A program made the position numbers and the translations under genes. The notes beneath the pieces were generated by a model, which was not told the DNA's origin, did not search any database, and saw only the letters and a list, made by a program, of their open reading frames with translations. Of a stretch of 64,000 bases of DNA, positions 4,963 through 43,271 are shown one piece after another. How positions within the stretch are numbered: the stretch's first letter is position 1; every line of letters begins with the position of its first letter. The stretch comes from Candidatus Omnitrophica bacterium UBA6253 (GTDB taxonomy: Bacteria; Omnitrophota; Gorgyraeia; Gygaellales; Profunditerraquicolaceae): NCBI GenBank assembly GCA_002441245.1, contig DJVP01000011.1, positions 129,722-193,721 of the forward strand. The letters are read 5' to 3'.

Positions 4963-6354
4963 ATGACATACGCAGTTATTTTAGCCGGTGGAGTGGGAAG
5001 CAGGTTTTGGCCATTTTCGCGCTCCTTTGAGCCAAAGCAGTTTATGAAGGTTATTGGAGAGGCAAGTCTTTTTCAGACGACTATTCAGCGTTTAAAAGGC
5101 TTGGTGGATAAGCGCCGCGTTTATATTGTTACGAACAGTATTTATTTCTATGAAGTAAAGGCGCAGGTCGCTAAGTTTGGAATTCCCGATACAAATATAA
5201 TCTTAGAGCCGCAAGGTAAGAATACCGCTCCGGCGGTTGGGCTTTGCGCAAAATTAATCAGCAGGATAGATAAAGACGCGGTGCTCCTGGTTTTTCCCTC
5301 GGATCACTATATCAAGAATATAGGAAATTTTAAGAAAACGATTAAAAAAGCAATTGCCTGCGCAGGGAAAGATTTCTTGGTTACGATAGGGGTCAAACCG
5401 GGGGCAGCCTCAACGGGATATGGGTATATAAAGGTTGGCGGTAAGGAGAACGGATATAATATAGTCGAGAATTTCCTGGAAAAGCCGGGCTTAAAGGAGG
5501 CAGAGAAATATTTTAAGGATAAGAAATTCTTCTGGAACAGCGGGATGTTTGCCTGGAAGGCTTCGGTGTTCCTGGATGAGGCCAGGAGATACCTGCCTAA
5601 ACTGTACGCTAATCTGAGGTTGATTAATTCGGCAAATGATATCCCTGAAATCTGGCCGAGGATTAAGGCGATTTCTATTGATTACGGGATTATGGAACAT
5701 TCGCGCAGGATCGCGCTTATCCCCGCTGATTTTTACTGGACGGATTTAGGCAGCTGGGGTGCGCTGGCGGAGATCTTTCCGAAAGATAAGAAAGGTAATA
5801 TCGCTAATAGCGATACCTTGAATGTGGATAGCCACGGCGTATGTATATTTGCCAGAGGCAACAGGTTGGTTTCGACAATTGGTGTTAATAATATGGTTAT
5901 CGCGGACACCCCGGATGCCTTACTGGTTTGCGATAGGAACAGGACTCAGGATGTGAAGCAACTGGTTGATAGGTTAAAGACGCTCAAGCGCAAAGAGCAT
6001 CAGGTGCATTTGACTGAGCGCAGGCCCTGGGGGTCGTTTACTGTTTTACAGGAAGGTCCGGGTTTTAAGATTAAGCTTATTGAGCTTGCGTCGAAGAAAC
6101 GCCTTAGCCTGCAAAGGCATAAATGCAGGGCTGAGCATTGGGTGGTGGTTTCCGGCATGGCAAAGATTACCAGCGCTGATAAGGTTTCATTTGTACGCAG
6201 TAATGAGAGTGTGTATATACCTAAATACAGGAAGCACCGCCTGGAGAACCCACTGCGCATACCTTTGAAGATTGTTGAAGTGCAGACAGGCGCCTATCTT
6301 GAGGAAGACGATATTGAAAGATTTGAAGACGATTTTATTAAAGAGCGCAGGTAG
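4963..6354 (+). CDS. manC: Mannose-1-phosphate guanylyltransferase / mannose-6-phosphate isomerase (bifunctional ManC type)
   Basis: AVILAGGVGSRFWP nucleotidyltransferase N-terminus plus a C-terminal cupin domain. 463 aa. Confidence 0.9.
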   Translation: MTYAVILAGGVGSRFWPFSRSFEPKQFMKVIGEASLFQTTIQRLKGLVDKRRVYIVTNSIYFYEVKAQVAKFGIPDTNIILEPQGKNTAPAVGLCAKLISRIDKDAVLLVFPSDHYIKNIGNFKKTIKKAIACAGKDFLVTIGVKPGAASTGYGYIKVGGKENGYNIVENFLEKPGLKEAEKYFKDKKFFWNSGMFAWKASVFLDEARRYLPKLYANLRLINSANDIPEIWPRIKAISIDYGIMEHSRRIALIPADFYWTDLGSWGALAEIFPKDKKGNIANSDTLNVDSHGVCIFARGNRLVSTIGVNNMVIADTPDALLVCDRNRTQDVKQLVDRLKTLKRKEHQVHLTERRPWGSFTVLQEGPGFKIKLIELASKKRLSLQRHKCRAEHWVVVSGMAKITSADKVSFVRSNESVYIPKYRKHRLENPLRIPLKIVEVQTGAYLEEDDIERFEDDFIKERR

Positions 6355-7438
6355 GGTAGGCAGAAATGCCCCTAAATTCCTGATTGTTAATCCGTTTGGG
6401 ATCGGGGATGTCCTGTTTACCACGCCGGTGATCAGGGCGATTAAAGGGCATTATCCGGATAGTTTTATCTGTTACTGGTCGAATGCGCGGGTTAAACCTA
6501 TTTTGGAAGGTAATCCTCATATAAATAAAGTTTTTGCTCTTTCGCGCGGAGACCTTAAAAAGATTTACGAGGAGTCATTTTTTAAAGGTGCCTGGAGCGC
6601 GATTAAACTGGCTTGGGAGATAAGGAAGGAACGTTTTGATATCTGCCTCGATTTTTCTCTCGACCACCGTTATAGTCTGTTTGCGAAAATAATGGGGATA
6701 GGCAGGCGTATTGGATTTAATTATAAAAGCAGGGGGAGATTTCTTACTAACCGCCTGGACATAGACGGCTATCATAATAAGCATGTAGTAGAATATTATC
6801 TGGAGTTGCTTAAATTTTTAGATATTTCAGTTAACGACAAGGGGATGCTCTTGGATGTTTCTCCTGAAACAGAATCGAGGGCAAAAAACTTACTTGCTGC
6901 AGCGGGGATTGAAGAAAAGGATTTAGTGATCGGCATTGCCCCTGGAGCCGGAGGCAGCTGGGGCAAGGATGCCCCTTACAAGCATTGGCCGGCATTAAAG
7001 TTTGCTCAGTTAGCGAATAAGCTTATAGATGAGTTTGGCGCCAAGGTGGTAATACTGGGAGATGAGCCAGAACGCAAGATCGCTGAGGTAATGGTTCATG
7101 CTATGCGTAATAAGCCGATAGATTTGACGGGTAAGACGGGATTGGATATTTTACCGGGGATAATTAAGAATTGTAATTTGCTTATTACTAATGATGGCGG
7201 GCCGATGCATATGGCAGTGGCGTTGGGGGTCAGGTCAGTTTCAATCTTTGGGCCGGTAAGCGAAACGGTGTATGGGCCGTATCCCGGAAAGTGGACACAT
7301 ATAGCCTTGAAATGGGATATGACTTGCCGGCCGTGTTATAAGAATTTCAGGCTTGCGGTTTGCGATAAAGATAGAGAATGTTTAAGGCAGATTAGCGTTG
7401 ATACGGTTTTTGGGGCGGCGGCGAGGTTGTTAAAATAA
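6272..7438 (+). CDS. GT9 heptosyltransferase; true start probably downstream of 6272 (TTG candidates at 6299, 6314, 6323)
   Basis: KFLIVNPFGIGDVLFTTPVIRAIK N-terminal region and ITNDGGPMHMAVALG C-terminal motif. The ORF overlaps manC by about 80 nt. Confidence 0.75.
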   Translation: MLKCRQAPILRKTILKDLKTILLKSAGRVGRNAPKFLIVNPFGIGDVLFTTPVIRAIKGHYPDSFICYWSNARVKPILEGNPHINKVFALSRGDLKKIYEESFFKGAWSAIKLAWEIRKERFDICLDFSLDHRYSLFAKIMGIGRRIGFNYKSRGRFLTNRLDIDGYHNKHVVEYYLELLKFLDISVNDKGMLLDVSPETESRAKNLLAAAGIEEKDLVIGIAPGAGGSWGKDAPYKHWPALKFAQLANKLIDEFGAKVVILGDEPERKIAEVMVHAMRNKPIDLTGKTGLDILPGIIKNCNLLITNDGGPMHMAVALGVRSVSIFGPVSETVYGPYPGKWTHIALKWDMTCRPCYKNFRLAVCDKDRECLRQISVDTVFGAAARLLK

Positions 7439-32579: not shown

Positions 32580-33746
32580 TTAGCTGCAGCAGGTGTTATT
32601 CTTGCCCTGGTTTTTGGCTTTATAGAGTGATTTGTCTGAAGAGGTAATCAACTCCGCAGGAAGCTGCCCATTTTCAGGGAAGGTGGCGATTCCCAGGCTT
32701 ACCGTTAGAGATTTGTTAGCAAAGATATTTTCATTTAAGAAAGGGTATTTTTGAATATCTATCCTTAGCCGTTCAGCGATCATGTAAGCTTCTTTTTGCT
32801 CGGTTTGGGGCAAGATTATGGTGAATTCTTCGCCTCCATAGCGGCAGACATGATCCATCTTGCGCGATTGATTACGTAAAAGCTGCGCCAAGTCTTTTAA
32901 TATCCTGTCTCCTGTCTGATGCCCCAAGGTGTCGTTGTAAACCTTAAAATTATCTATATCTATAGTAATTAAACTAAGTTTGCTTTTAGTTGCCTTAGCT
33001 TTTTCTACCTCTGTCTGCAGGAGGTATTGAAAATATCCGTGGTTCCAGAGGCCGGTTAGGTAATCCGAGTGTGCGCGTTCGGAGGTTAATTCAAAAAGCT
33101 GGGAGTTTTCAATTGCCAGGCCAGCCTGGTTGGCTAACATGGTAAGCATGCGTATATCGTCTTTAGTAATCGGGTCATTGGTGATAAAATTATCCGCAAT
33201 GATGATTCCGTTTACCCGGTCTTTTGCTTTTAACGGAATAAGCAAGAGTTCGTTGCTTTCCAGTATTTTAATTACGGGAGAGTTCTGGTACTTTTTGATG
33301 GTTTGATTGGTTAAATGTAAAGGCATGCCTTCCAGGACTGCCAGGGAAAGAGGGTTTTCATCTTTGTCCTGCATGGATACCTTTAGGCTTTTGACCTGGC
33401 GGTTAAAACCGGATTCCAATACCCAACTGGAATTCTTAAAGGCATTAATCAGGTCATCCAGATCCATTTTTTCCTCTTCGATCTTGGTCCAGGCGATGTT
33501 GGCCTCTTCGCCGTTTTCTGGGCCGATGCCCATTTTGCCTTCAATGATCTTTTCTTTTTCATTGACCAAAAAAAGCATGGCGCGATTGAATCCTAACCCC
33601 GTATGTGCGGTTACCCCGGTAAGAATAATGTAGAGGATTTCATCCAGTTTTAAGGTGGTACGCATGGCATTGGAGATTTCGTAAAGTATCCCCAGCTCGA
33701 TTTTTGTGCGTTCAAGTTCGATTTTCAGCTTATTTAGTTCTTCCAT
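32580..33746 (-). CDS. GAF-domain diguanylate cyclase (GGDEF)
   Basis: N-terminal GAF domain and a C-terminal GGDEF domain with RYGGEEF. The only minus-strand gene, convergent on smc. Confidence 0.85.
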   Translation of the reverse strand: MEELNKLKIELERTKIELGILYEISNAMRTTLKLDEILYIILTGVTAHTGLGFNRAMLFLVNEKEKIIEGKMGIGPENGEEANIAWTKIEEEKMDLDDLINAFKNSSWVLESGFNRQVKSLKVSMQDKDENPLSLAVLEGMPLHLTNQTIKKYQNSPVIKILESNELLLIPLKAKDRVNGIIIADNFITNDPITKDDIRMLTMLANQAGLAIENSQLFELTSERAHSDYLTGLWNHGYFQYLLQTEVEKAKATKSKLSLITIDIDNFKVYNDTLGHQTGDRILKDLAQLLRNQSRKMDHVCRYGGEEFTIILPQTEQKEAYMIAERLRIDIQKYPFLNENIFANKSLTVSLGIATFPENGQLPAELITSSDKSLYKAKNQGKNNTCCS

Positions 33747-33833
33747 AATGTTTTAAGTGTAGCACATTTTTTGCTAAAGTCAAGAAAGGGCAAACAGAAG
33801 CGCCATCTGATTATAAGGAAGGGTGTTAATTAG

Positions 33834-33862
33834 TTGACATTTCTTGAGTATTATTATATAAT
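33834..33862 (+). promoter_or_regulatory. Perfect consensus sigma70 promoter TTGACA-N17-TATAAT driving the secreted-protein pair
   Basis: TTGACA at 33834-33839, a 17-nt spacer, TATAAT at 33857-33862; the first secreted-protein gene then starts at an ATG (33923) with a GAGGAAG RBS. Confidence 0.75.
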
Positions 33863-33922
33863 TAACATAATGATTTTTGCAAGATTTGTAGTCACCTTGC
33901 CCTTGCTGGAGAAGAGGAAGAT

Positions 33923-34411
33923 ATGTTAAGATTATCAAAGATTATTTTATTAGTTTTGTTTGTTTTTGTTTTCTTTGCTCCGGCCATTTTCGCCGAAGAT
34001 ATCACTATTACCACATATTATCCTTCTCCGTATGGAAGCTACAATGAACTACAGTTATACCCGCATACTCCAGCTATTACTACCTGTGATGCTACTCACG
34101 GTATTGGTACGATGTTTTATGATTCCTCTACTAACGAGATAAAAGTTTGTCATGGATCTGCGGGTTGGCTAACACTTAACAGTGGCATAAGCTATACATA
34201 CTATTGCTTTAACCTTAGCCTTGGCACTCCTGTGTGTTCAAACGCAGGAGGTACTCAAGGTTATTGTCCCTCAGGATATAAACAGAAGCTTGCTCTTGGT
34301 TCATGGGGAGCTTGCGGTAACGTCGGTTACCACTATTTTCTTCCACCAGGAGGAACTTGTGATGCTTATCCTACTTCCATTGCCGGTCAAGCGTATGTAT
34401 GTTCTCAGTAG
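33923..34411 (+). CDS. Secreted Cys-rich protein (8 Cys) sharing its signal peptide and first mature residues with the next gene
   Basis: Signal peptide ...FAPAIFA|EDITITTYYPSPYGSY. Eight cysteines in the mature part. No recognisable catalytic motif. Confidence 0.5.
   Translation: MLRLSKIILLVLFVFVFFAPAIFAEDITITTYYPSPYGSYNELQLYPHTPAITTCDATHGIGTMFYDSSTNEIKVCHGSAGWLTLNSGISYTYYCFNLSLGTPVCSNAGGTQGYCPSGYKQKLALGSWGACGNVGYHYFLPPGGTCDAYPTSIAGQAYVCSQ
33981..34041 (+). repeat. 61-nt perfect direct repeat, copy 1 (signal-peptide end plus EDITITTYYPSPYGSY)
   Basis: Identical to 34485..34545. Confidence 0.9.
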
Positions 34412-34414
34412 ACA

Positions 34415-35080
34415 ATGTTTTTTAATATGGAACGTTTATTAAAGATTGCTTTATTAATTCTCCTTGTTTTAATTATTTCCACGTCGGCCATTTTCGCCGA
34501 AGATATCACTATTACCACATATTATCCTTCTCCGTATGGAAGCTATGATTCTCTTTTTACCGATAAACTTGGCGTGGGAGATAATAACAATGATACCCTT
34601 TATACTTCCGCTGATGTGCCCACTACTACCGGAGATGTTTGGATTAAAGGCAGACTTGGCATAGGAACGATGACCCCGGGTGCGTATAAAATAAACGTTG
34701 TTGGGGCAGCTGGATTGAGCACAGGAACTGCCTGGACTAATACATCTGACCGGCGCTGGAAAGATATCAAGAGCGAGTTGAAAGGCATCTCTCTCAGTAA
34801 AATTCTGGCTTTGCGTCCTGTATCTTATACGTGGAATAAACTGCACAATGAGCAGTTTGGAAAGAACACAGATTTAAAGTATGGATTTATCGCGCAAGAG
34901 GTCGAAGATATCTTTCCGACTATGATTACGCAGGATGAAGAAGGATATTATTGGTATAATCCTAGCGGTATGGAGGCGATTCTGACGGCTGCTATCCAGG
35001 AACAACAGGATATTATTAAGGCTCAACAGGTTGAGATTGATGGATTAAAGGCCAGGTTGAATAAGCTGGAAAGAAAGTAG
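34415..35080 (+). CDS. Secreted tail-fibre-like protein with a C-terminal intramolecular-chaperone (peptidase S74 / endosialidase chaperone) domain
   Basis: Same N-terminal cassette as the previous gene. C-terminal SDRRWKDI...LRPVSYTW...YGFIAQEVEDIFP...coiled coil matches the auto-cleaving chaperone domain of phage tail spikes and endosialidases. Confidence 0.7.
   Translation: MFFNMERLLKIALLILLVLIISTSAIFAEDITITTYYPSPYGSYDSLFTDKLGVGDNNNDTLYTSADVPTTTGDVWIKGRLGIGTMTPGAYKINVVGAAGLSTGTAWTNTSDRRWKDIKSELKGISLSKILALRPVSYTWNKLHNEQFGKNTDLKYGFIAQEVEDIFPTMITQDEEGYYWYNPSGMEAILTAAIQEQQDIIKAQQVEIDGLKARLNKLERK
34485..34545 (+). repeat. 61-nt perfect direct repeat, copy 2
   Basis: Identical to 33981..34041. 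Confidence 0.9.
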
Positions 35081-35107
35081 AAACGTCCGATAATCTTTGT
35101 TAGATTG

Positions 35108-35152
35108 CCCTCTTTTTTACGTCAGTTAGAGTAGAAAGGAGGGATTTTTTGT
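35108..35152 (+). terminator. Putative intrinsic terminator after the secreted-protein pair
   Basis: ccctctttt ... aaaggaggg stem with one bulge and a ~19-nt loop, followed by attttttgtt. Confidence 0.35.
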
Positions 35153-35165
35153 TACGGGAATGTGG

Positions 35166-35194
35166 TTGACACTTTAACGGTGGCAAGTTATAAT
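35166..35194 (+). promoter_or_regulatory. Perfect consensus sigma70 promoter TTGACA-N17-TATAAT upstream of recA
   Basis: TTGACA at 35166-35171 and TATAAT at 35189-35194; recA starts at 35227 with a GGAGGGG RBS. Confidence 0.75.
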
Positions 35195-35226
35195 ATTTAC
35201 TTAAATTTAAATAGCGGAGGGGTAGA

Positions 35227-36252
35227 ATGGTAGCTGAAAAAAAGAAAGAAGAGATAAGAGAGGCAACAGACCGGCAAAAGGCGCTGGATCTGGCGTTGGC
35301 GCAGATAGAAAAGCAGTTTGGTAAGGGGTCGATTATGAAGCTGGGGGCGCATACCAAGGCCAATGTTGAGATAATATCAACAGGTGCGCTTACATTAGAC
35401 CTTGCTTTGGGGGTTGGCGGCCTGCCGCGGGGAAGGGTAGTTGAGATATTCGGTCCGGAGGCTTCCGGAAAGACTACTTTGACATTAACTGCGATAAGAG
35501 AGATCCAGAAAAAAGGCGGGGTGGCGGCATTTATTGACGCAGAGCATGCTTTTGACCCTACTTATGCCAAGATAATTGGTTTGAATTTAGATGACCTTTT
35601 GATTTCTCAGCCGGATACCGGTGAGCAAGCTTTGGAAATTACGGAGACCCTGGTGCGTTCCAATGCTGTAGATTTGGTGGTGGTTGATTCAGTTGCGGCG
35701 TTGACTCCGCGAGCGGAGATTGAGGGAGAAATGGGGGATTCGCATATGGGCTTGCAGGCGCGGTTAATGTCGCAGGCCTTACGTAAGTTGACCGGCTCAA
35801 TCAGTAAATCGCGCACTACAGTAATTTTTATCAATCAGTTAAGAGAAAAGATCGGAGTTATGTTTGGTTCGCCTGAGACAACTCCCGGAGGACGCGCGCT
35901 TAAGTTCTATTCATCAGTAAGGTTGGATGTGCGCAGGATCGCTTACTTAAAAGAAGGGGATAAGGTCATTGGTAACCATGTCAGGGTAAGGGTGGTTAAA
36001 AATAAAGTCGCTCCACCGTTTCGTGAGGCGGAGTTTGATATTATGCATAACGAGGGGATTGCCAAAACCGGCGCAGTGATTGATGCCTCAGTAAGTTTAG
36101 GGGTGATTGCTAAGGCCGGGACCTGGCTTTCGTTTGAAGATAAAAAGTTAGGCCAGGGGCGGGATGCGGCGATAAAGTTCTTAAAAGAAAATCCAAGATT
36201 ACAGGAAGATATTGAAAAGGAAGCGCGTAAGCAGTTTGACCTCGCCAAATAA
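35227..36252 (+). CDS. recA: Recombinase RecA
   Basis: [10 protein letters not shown] Walker A and the [14 protein letters not shown] RecA signature. Confidence 0.97.
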
Positions 36253-42779: not shown

Positions 42780-42851
42780 GTATTTGGCGTTGATCAGCAC
42801 CCAACGCTGGTAAGTATTGCGCTGGTGCGTGTTTCTAAACAAGGAGGAAGT

Positions 42852-43271
42852 ATGGAGAGAAGAATACTGTTGTTGGTGGCGGCAGGGGCTTTTATTTTTT
42901 CTTTAAGTGGATGCGCAAGTAGCAGGAATAAAGATTTAGAAATCCAGGGTTTAAGAAATCAGGTTACTGCGCTTGAATCACAGGCGCCTGTTAAGGCTGA
43001 TGAGGCAAGCAGCATGGAACAGGTTTCAGCTGTATCTACGGAGAGTTTAGACAAAAGTGGAGAGGCCAAAGAGCGCCCGAGCGCAAGGCAAATTCAAGCT
43101 GCTTTAAAGAATGCCGGTTATTATCAGGGGATTATTGATGGCAAGATCGGCAGACAGAGCCGTCAGGCAATAAAGGATTTCCAGAAAGCAAATAATCTTT
43201 CAGTGGACGGGAAGGTGGGCAAAAAGACCTGGATAGCTTTAAGAGAGTATTTACAGAAAAAAGTTAAATAA
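42852..43271 (+). CDS. Lipoprotein with a peptidoglycan-binding (PG_binding_1) domain, inserted between hisA and hisF
   Basis: Lipobox LSGCASS. C-terminal PGBD repeat (IQAALKNAGYYQGIIDGKIG...VDGKVGKKTW). AAGGAGG RBS before the ATG at 42852. Confidence 0.65.
   Translation: MERRILLLVAAGAFIFSLSGCASSRNKDLEIQGLRNQVTALESQAPVKADEASSMEQVSAVSTESLDKSGEAKERPSARQIQAALKNAGYYQGIIDGKIGRQSRQAIKDFQKANNLSVDGKVGKKTWIALREYLQKKVK

Follow-up and report, generated by a model that had tools for sequence, protein, structure and literature searches.

A large family of predicted exported proteins with a common N-terminal peptide in Omnitrophota

The mosaic adhesive trimer (MAT) proteins of Bdellovibrio bacteriovorus consist of a signal peptide, a conserved N-domain and a trimeric fibre; 13 members with an S74 domain and 8 without one have been described, their tips are swapped, and the N-domain is presumed to bind an element of the surface (Caulton et al. 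2024, PMC10769870). Members of another phylum, the Omnitrophota, are considered predatory or host-dependent in a preprint (10.1101/2023.11.21.568195), and the same text, referring to Kizina 2022 and Seymour 2023, describes them as abundant, uncultivated and ultra-small, and as thought to be predators or parasites. We analysed a stretch of 64,000 nucleotides (nt) from Candidatus Omnitrophica bacterium UBA6253 (contig DJVP01000011.1, positions 129,722 to 193,721; hereafter the window) and found two adjacent open reading frames (ORFs), ORF A and ORF B, with predicted exported products that share a short N-terminal peptide, here called the N-peptide. Judged by sequence profiles, this peptide defines a large, undescribed family of exported short proteins with thousands of members. 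With a probability of about 0.6, we read these proteins as surface fibres with exchangeable tips, an Omnitrophota counterpart of the MAT adhesive fibres in which the N-peptide would be the handle.

Two proteins with one N-terminal peptide

In the ORF list of the window, ORF A is followed head to tail by ORF B on the plus strand. An earlier sequence-only reading had described both, and both were found as described except for the start of ORF B, which it had placed at 34415; homologues and NCBI gene calls support the second ATG, at 34427, which gives 217 amino acids (aa) and not 221. The genes and the parts of their products are as follows (residues of ORF B are given below in the 221-aa numbering).

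33923-34411, plus strand: ORF A, 162 aa
33981-34041, plus strand: 61-nt tract, copy 1 (end of the signal peptide and N-peptide), exact identity
33995-34051, plus strand: invariant N-peptide of ORF A, EDITITTYYPSPYGSYNEL, from the logo of 387 family members
34190-34408, plus strand: Cys-rich tip of ORF A, SYTYYCF..GTPVC..GG.QGYCPSGY.QK.ALGSWG.C..LPPGG.C..G.AYVCSQ, conserved behind several stalks
34427-35080, plus strand: ORF B, 217 aa (alternative start 34415, 221 aa)
34485-34545, plus strand: 61-nt tract, copy 2, exact identity
34556-34705, plus strand: extended B-type module, LFTDKLGVGDNNNDTLYTSADVPTTTGDVWIKGRLGIGTMTPGAYKINVVG, with a DxNxD...D calcium-loop-like motif and a VGIGT..P..K capping-loop-like motif
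34580-34615, plus strand: DxNxDG...D calcium-loop-like motif of the dockerin kind in ORF B, read from the motif
34745-35077, plus strand: Peptidase S74 / intramolecular chaperone domain with Ser111-Lys116 (SDRRWK) and a C-terminal helix, from Pfam, PHROG, a PDB profile and Foldseek

The DNA at 33981-34041 was identical to that at 34485-34545 over exactly 61 nt, with mismatching bases on either side of both copies. The 59-nt core of this tract occurred twice in the window, against 0 occurrences expected from 100 shuffles, and around the tract a looser repeat of 121 nt with 83% identity took in the signal peptides. Both proteins began with a signal peptide ending in AIFA, followed by EDITITTYYPSPYGSY, and were unrelated past residue 43 in ORF A and residue 47 in ORF B. 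The signal peptides were judged by inspection, from a hydrophobic h-region and an AxA-type site. The identity over 61 nt, the AIFA leaders and the full divergence afterwards had all been claimed from the letters of the window, and each held when checked. The same arrangement of ORF A and ORF B, with the same flanks, was present in at least six datasets (NCBI, JGI and ENA) that had been assembled independently of one another; the pair is therefore not an artefact, and the possibility that the identity arose in assembly, which had been raised together with the claim, was ruled out. An Rfam scan of 33000-36000 gave no match, so that a known RNA element does not explain the identity either. The claim of a common N-terminal module was also right, and its proposed length of 16 residues was wrong; the module has 19 residues and is extended to about 70 in ORF B. 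In AlphaFold2 monomer models of both proteins the N-peptide was predicted with low confidence, as would be expected if its folding needs an oligomer or a partner.

ORF B was divided into a signal peptide (residues 5-28), the N-peptide (29-47), the extended B-type module (48-97) and the S74 domain (111-221). The last of these had been proposed before any search was run, and the hidden Markov model of Pfam family PF13884 (Peptidase_S74) matched residues 111-169 with an E-value of 1.1e-13 and 51.7 bits, above the gathering cut-off of 22. Many PHROG tail-fibre families matched from about residue 93 on, with E-values down to 1e-17. The family profile matched PDB entries 6f45, the distal subunit of a long tail fibre (1e-17), and 7dc3, MyRF (9e-17); the SDRRWK of ORF B aligned with the same motif of 6f45, and S111 and K116 of the S-D-x-x-x-K motif were invariant in 31 homologues. 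The S74 domain was modelled by AlphaFold2 with a predicted local distance difference test score (pLDDT) above 90, and a Foldseek search with the ORF B model returned 7dc3 with probability 1.0 and a template modelling (TM) score of 0.64-0.68, and 3gw6 and 3gud as well, with probabilities of 0.99-1.0. By sequence and model, the C-terminus of ORF B is thus a genuine S74 chaperone domain with predicted self-cleavage. If cleavage at Ser111 proceeds as in relatives, by analogy it would leave mature residues 29-111, about 83 aa, and this predicted mature chain hardly extends beyond the conserved N-terminal module. Upstream of the domain, stalk profile positions 74-115 matched the Bdellovibrio MAT chains 8ond (E 8.6e-11) and 8ojn (E 3e-8), and also 8oml and 8ol4. 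The capping-loop motif V-G-G/N-pi-x-x-P-x-x-x-L is present in ORF B as GIGTMTPGAYKI.

ORF A was divided into a signal peptide (aa 1-24), the N-peptide (25-43), an A-type beta-hairpin stalk (44-87) and a tip with six cysteines (about 88-162). The protein contains 8 Cys in all, the number first counted in it. The tip was modelled by AlphaFold2 with a pLDDT above 90, and no significant structural neighbour of its predicted fold was found. NCBIfam gave no match for ORF A or ORF B; in PHROGs there was none for ORF A, and in ORF B just the S74 end was matched. The same tip forms the C-terminus of another Omnitrophota protein, P0204, which has a minor-pilin N-terminus of the PilX_N type. Since the tip occurs on different stalks and on P0204, it is, as far as its sequence tells, a portable display module common to two display scaffolds. 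A search with the 78-aa tip alone returned one extra, partial Omnitrophota protein, with a word index that is weak for this query.

The N-peptide family

A 50-position N-terminal profile was searched against 1.84 billion representative proteins, clustered at 50% identity, in a library that carries no organism names. It had matches in 4,805 clusters with E<=1e-3, and 1,199 clusters passed the stricter limit of E<=1e-10; in 150 of the 150 best matches the match lay at the protein start or near it. The logo of 387 members reads E(95%)-x-[ILVF]-T-I-T-T-Y-Y-P-S-P-Y-G-[SV]-Y-x-x-L, with the T, Y, Y, P, P and G fully conserved, and the N-peptide begins 2-5 residues past a site of the signal-peptidase type, where 81% of members have A at -1. 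Most homologues had this N-terminus in common and unrelated C-termini. Members were 68-641 aa long in the set examined, with a median of about 208 aa among the retrieved proteins. At the DNA level, a degenerate pattern for TITTYYPSPxG was found in at least 119 genome stretches; these belong to about 90 assemblies, and a single metagenome-assembled genome can have as many as 6 loci. Further members had been predicted to exist, and by both routes they were found in very large numbers.

Homologues of ORF A and ORF B were annotated solely as Candidatus Omnitrophota, and the titles among the matches listed were either Omnitrophota or the placeholders Planctomycetales and Planctomycetia. Placeholder loci that include recA (L001, L013 and L042) encode a RecA 86-96% identical to that of the window and also keep its synteny; for these reasons the placeholder titles look like mislabelled Omnitrophota. 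Pfam, NCBIfam and PHROGs hold no model for the N-peptide, in agreement with the earlier statement that the module belongs to no recognised family. In the accessible literature, no paper contained the motif string or joined Omnitrophota with S74 or endosialidase, and papers that join the phylum with tail fibres concern other subjects.

The stalks that follow the N-peptide fall into several types. Among 285 retrieved motif-bearing proteins, 117 were B-type, with the consensus xSLQTDKLGVGDNNxDGxFTSADVPTTxGxVWIKGxVGIGT as in ORF B; the A-type consensus, as in ORF A, is xELQLYPH...C..GTMYYDS...VC.G..W, and at least two further stalk types were seen. The calcium-loop-like motif was present in 126 of the 387 members, in 120 of them at a fixed offset from the N-peptide. 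Giant proteins rich in dockerins are described for Omnitrophota in preprint 10.1101/2023.11.21.568195, and may be set beside the dockerin-kind loop of this family. In a Pfam scan of the 150 best N-peptide matches, S74 was found in 28, while C1q, phage tail collar, YadA head and dockerin domains each occurred in single members; the remainder had no Pfam family. The recognisable C-terminal domains are, on sequence matches, mainly parts of trimeric fibres or adhesins.

These results also bear on two other accounts of the family. A conserved trafficking N-terminus joined to variable killing C-termini is the build of polymorphic secreted toxins or bacteriocins, with ORF A as a defensin-like member, and the conserved N-terminus, the variable C-termini and the replacement of alleles by recombination (see below) are as such an account would have them. 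ORF A has its 8 Cys and a faint gamma-thionin match in Pfam (E 0.12, below any threshold). However, no toxin domain was detected in the 150 members scanned, the domains that could be identified are binding or fibre domains, and no candidate immunity gene lies downstream, where the next gene is another fibre gene or recA. We regard a toxin system as very unlikely. 

Somewhat less remote, and still quite unlikely, is a filament or pilus built from these proteins, in which each subunit donates its N-terminal strand ITITTYY to the next. Donor-strand insertion of this kind is known from chaperone-usher pili and archaeal threads. An alternating hydrophobic and polar strand pattern right at the mature N-terminus would suit it, as would the frequent tandem pairs of genes and the presence of the ORF A tip on the minor pilin P0204. 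However, ORF A and ORF B have just the N-peptide in common and no common acceptor domain, no usher or chaperone gene is nearby, and the domains that were recognised are mainly of trimeric-fibre types.

Recombination and the recA slot

The module is a site of exchange between strains. The loci of two near-identical strains, L124 with a B-type gene and L120 with an A-type gene, were 98.7% identical over 385 nt that comprise the 5' end of the GGDEF gene, the promoter, the ribosome-binding site, the signal peptide and the module up to ..CCGTATGG. Past this point the two were unrelated, and they became 94-98% identical again at the hairpin and upstream of recA. This is an allele replacement with its left breakpoint inside the module. 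At one synonymous Ser codon within the module, the two copies agree in the window and in three near-identical assemblies (TCT) and also in a strain with 99.1% identity to the window (TCG); in a strain with 98.8% identity, one copy has TCT and the other TCG. The co-variation of the two copies across strains indicates, from these sequences, gene conversion between the two neighbouring module copies. Shuffling of C-terminal parts onto a common 5' module, as first suggested from the 61-nt identity, is thus supported by the replacement at L124/L120 and by the conversion of the copies.

Nucleotide-level selection on the module was considered as a general cause of the identity and rejected. Between unrelated loci with one and the same core peptide, nucleotide identity was 81%, with 0.9% of pairs identical, and other tandem pairs were 71-95% identical in the core; the perfect 61 nt therefore point to local homogenisation and not to a universal nucleotide constraint. 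Neither silent cassettes nor a diversity-generating retroelement was indicated, as no further copies or template repeats of ORF A or ORF B were found in the window.

The two genes are placed in a variable slot with the following borders and signals.

32580-33746, minus strand: divergent GAF-GGDEF gene, left border of the slot (Pfam GGDEF E 1.6e-46, GAF E 1e-8)
33834-33862, plus strand: predicted sigma-70-type promoter TTGACA-N17-TATAAT of ORF A and ORF B, consensus match 12/12
33908-33919, plus strand: purine-rich Shine-Dalgarno region of ORF A, GGAGAAGAGGAA, read from the sequence
35108-35150 (hairpin 35108-35143), plus strand: intrinsic terminator, hairpin CCCTC..GGAGGG followed by U6, folding at -21.6 kcal/mol, z -3.0

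The 64-kb window belongs to the core chromosome, with genes for PGK, TIM, SecG, SMC, RecA, RecX, AlaS, histidine biosynthesis (his), SecDF, Mfd and RpoB. The order SMC, GAF-GGDEF (minus strand), slot, recA, recX and alaS was kept, whole or in part, in about 20 fetched loci. In these roughly 20 species the slot held one or two family members of varied subfamily, 179-529 aa long, between flanks of 70-84% nucleotide identity. Similarity to the window across species ended near 33784 and resumed at about 35098 at the terminator hairpin; in between, the module alone aligned in most species, and in two relatives an ORF A- or ORF B-type gene aligned further. Elsewhere, family members adjoin argH-like or MiaB-like genes. 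Among the listed neighbours of the 119 loci just housekeeping genes were found, and no secretin, usher, sortase, chaperone or secretion gene.

This setting largely refutes the idea that the proteins are receptor-binding proteins left in the chromosome by a prophage or tailocin, which we now consider extremely improbable. The S74 and PHROG tail-fibre matches of ORF B would agree with such an origin, as would a gene for an ORF6N (KilA-N-like) protein in the same slot of a related strain. Fibres of phages and tailocins assemble in the cytoplasm, however, and both proteins here carry signal peptides; the family profile, too, takes in a hydrophobic N-terminal leader and an AxA-type site. Moreover, genes for a tail, baseplate or capsid are absent from the 64-kb window, about 20 species have kept the slot, and the module pattern had 0 matches in 2.9 million viral contigs. 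The suggestion in the sequence-only reading of a receptor-binding set of the tailocin or bacteriocin kind was accordingly abandoned, given the housekeeping neighbours, the signal peptides and the lack of viral-contig matches.

By their sequence signals, ORF A and ORF B form one operon, with a consensus promoter before it and a hairpin terminator after it. The promoter had been pointed out before, and it agrees with the consensus at all 12 of 12 positions; a promoter of the same form was found in the same relative place in the relatives L120 and L124. ORF B has no Shine-Dalgarno site comparable to that of ORF A, and its start lies 3 or 15 nt past the ORF A stop, depending on the ATG used, which suggests translational coupling of ORF B to ORF A. 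The terminator hairpin is the conserved right border of the slot and was kept at this position in relatives. In some relatives, extra copies of it were observed upstream of or beside the fibre gene (L033 2726-2770; L040 5356-5408 and about 5256-5308), and these may be scars of past cassette exchange. The hairpin as a part of a mobile cassette was considered and rejected, as it is confined to the recA slot. Directly past it, at 35166-35194, a second perfect TTGACA-N17-TATAAT belongs to recA.

The minus-strand gene upstream does encode GAF and GGDEF domains, as had been stated. A promoter-like site for it (10/12) is found at 33853-33882 on the minus strand and overlaps the fibre promoter at 33834-33862 on the plus strand; with these overlapping divergent promoters, transcription of the GAF-GGDEF gene and of the fibre operon may interfere or be co-regulated. 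Of the cyclic di-GMP link that had been proposed, the adjacency to GGDEF is real, and the link itself rests solely on conserved synteny in one clade.

Some further observations were made in and around the slot. The SMC gene beside it carries an intein in L120 (1-3645; Intein_splicing, LAGLIDADG_3), and the SMC ORF of the window, with 1087 aa, runs unbroken through the orthologous position. In the same slot, L120 has an 87-aa A-type fragment without a tip, an orphan module, at 5550-5813, and the ORF6N gene, which encodes a DNA-binding protein, is found at 5915-6421 between the hairpin and recA. In the window, a 148-aa protein with a peptidoglycan-binding domain (PG_binding_1) is encoded at 42825-43268 within the row of histidine biosynthesis genes.

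Proposed function and comparison with known systems

Reading the family as surface fibres, we propose the following course of events. Both products would be exported via Sec, and signal peptidase I would cut after AIFA and expose the near-invariant mature N-terminus E-x-[ILVF]-TITTYYPSPYG-[SV]-Y-x-x-L. By analogy with solved S74 proteins, the chaperone domain of ORF B would trimerise the stalk and then cleave itself off at Ser111, and ORF A would present a disulfide-rich tip on a hairpin stalk. The N-peptide would be a common handle by which members dock to a single conserved envelope element or are let through it, and the variable C-terminal parts would be tips that bind targets on hosts, prey or surfaces. 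Because it is conserved in DNA, the 5' module serves as a recombination site, at which strains swap tips and gene conversion makes its two copies alike; such tip exchange probably varies what the cell sticks to.

Several points weigh against this proposal. The sequences show the genes, the family, the S74 domain, the fibre-type domains, the housekeeping surroundings and the recombination; trimer formation, surface location, the role as adhesins and the anchoring by the N-peptide are inferred. The fibre label rests on a minority of members, as about 80% of those sampled have no recognisable domain. After self-cleavage ORF B would hardly exceed the conserved module, which is odd for an adhesin. 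The handle of 19 residues is far shorter than the MAT N-domain of about 130 aa, and no conserved partner gene adjoins the family members among the listed neighbours of the 119 loci. The restriction to Omnitrophota, finally, is based on the matches listed and on a protein library without names, and is not proven.

The N-peptide might instead be a signal for transport or processing and not an anchor, a tag read by an outer-membrane translocator or a modifying enzyme, with the fibres released or attached in another way. The N22 segment of the curli protein CsgA is such a signal, for CsgG. The N-peptide keeps a set spacing (2-5 residues) from the signal-peptidase site and hardly varies across proteins that otherwise cannot be aligned, both of which are traits of sorting signals; it is also disordered in the monomer models and very short for a structural anchor. 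However, no translocator or sortase-like gene is linked to the listed loci, no known N-terminal sorting family matches in Pfam or NCBIfam, and MAT, the closest analogue, is thought to bind the surface through its N-domain. We consider a pure transport signal unlikely, though the likeliest of the alternatives weighed here; it overlaps with the surface-fibre reading, and the present data fit both and cannot separate them.

As a bolder and tentative extension of the surface-fibre reading, one we would not bet on, the N-peptide E-x-I-TITTYYPSPYGSY-x-x-L might be an N-terminal signal for sorting or anchoring that is new and specific to the phylum, read by envelope machinery that mounts exchangeable mini-fibres on ultra-small predatory or parasitic cells, with the repertoire setting the range of hosts or prey. 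It would then be an N-terminal counterpart to the C-terminal tags of the type IX secretion system (T9SS CTD) and of PEP-CTERM proteins. The clusters of exported fibre-like proteins, at least 1,200 in number, are a candidate partner-recognition layer of Omnitrophota, with genes located at hot spots where alleles are replaced. As a search key, the 19-residue N-peptide could serve to annotate thousands of hypothetical proteins; it could also be used as bait to fish for its partner in the envelope and, as a tryptic peptide, to diagnose the family in metaproteomes.

Three kinds of known system resemble this locus in part. Variation through conserved 5' segments is known from gene conversion at Neisseria pilE/pilS and from the exchange of phage tail-fibre cassettes. 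As in pilE/pilS, a conserved 5' homology tract is followed by variable 3' parts, and gene conversion can be demonstrated; in contrast to pilE/pilS, the window has no store of silent promoterless cassettes, and the exchange takes place between strains and between two neighbours and is not a programmed switch. With the PilX minor pilins the link is the Cys-rich tip of ORF A, which is also displayed on the PilX_N-type protein P0204. Unlike type IV pilins, however, both ORF products start with a cleavable signal peptide of the classical kind and not with a prepilin leader and a hydrophobic helix: in place of a leader ending in G, the F/M-x-x-x-E motif and a helix, a hydrophobic leader comes first and is followed by the conserved polar and aromatic peptide. 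With S74 phage fibres, such as the K1F endosialidase (3gw6), the T5 L-shaped fibre and 6f45, and with MyRF (7dc3), ORF B has in common the SDxxxK dyad, the fold and an upstream loop of the VGIGT..P..L type. It differs from the phage fibres in being chromosomal, in having a signal peptide, in its place outside a virion context and in having about 83 residues before the cleavage site.

The resemblance to MAT goes furthest. In both families a Sec signal peptide is followed directly by a family-wide conserved N-terminal module, parts of phage tail fibres are used, S74 and non-S74 subgroups exist side by side and the tips are diverse and exchangeable. In each case paralogues are numerous within one genome and the bacterium is a predator or depends on a host; in sequence, the region of stalk and capping loop matches crystal chains of MAT. 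The module of the Omnitrophota proteins, however, has 19 residues (up to about 70 aa in the B-type) and not, like the MAT N-domain, a beta-rich fold of about 130 aa, which lies outside the C-terminal MAT fragments available in the PDB; the proteins are also far shorter, belong to another phylum and are known here from their genes. From these comparisons, the Bdellovibrio MAT family is the closest known analogue, and the Omnitrophota family would be a variant of the MAT kind with a much shorter N-terminal module. This suggests that the unrelated predatory phyla Bdellovibrionota and Omnitrophota independently made phage tail-fibre parts into secreted adhesins.

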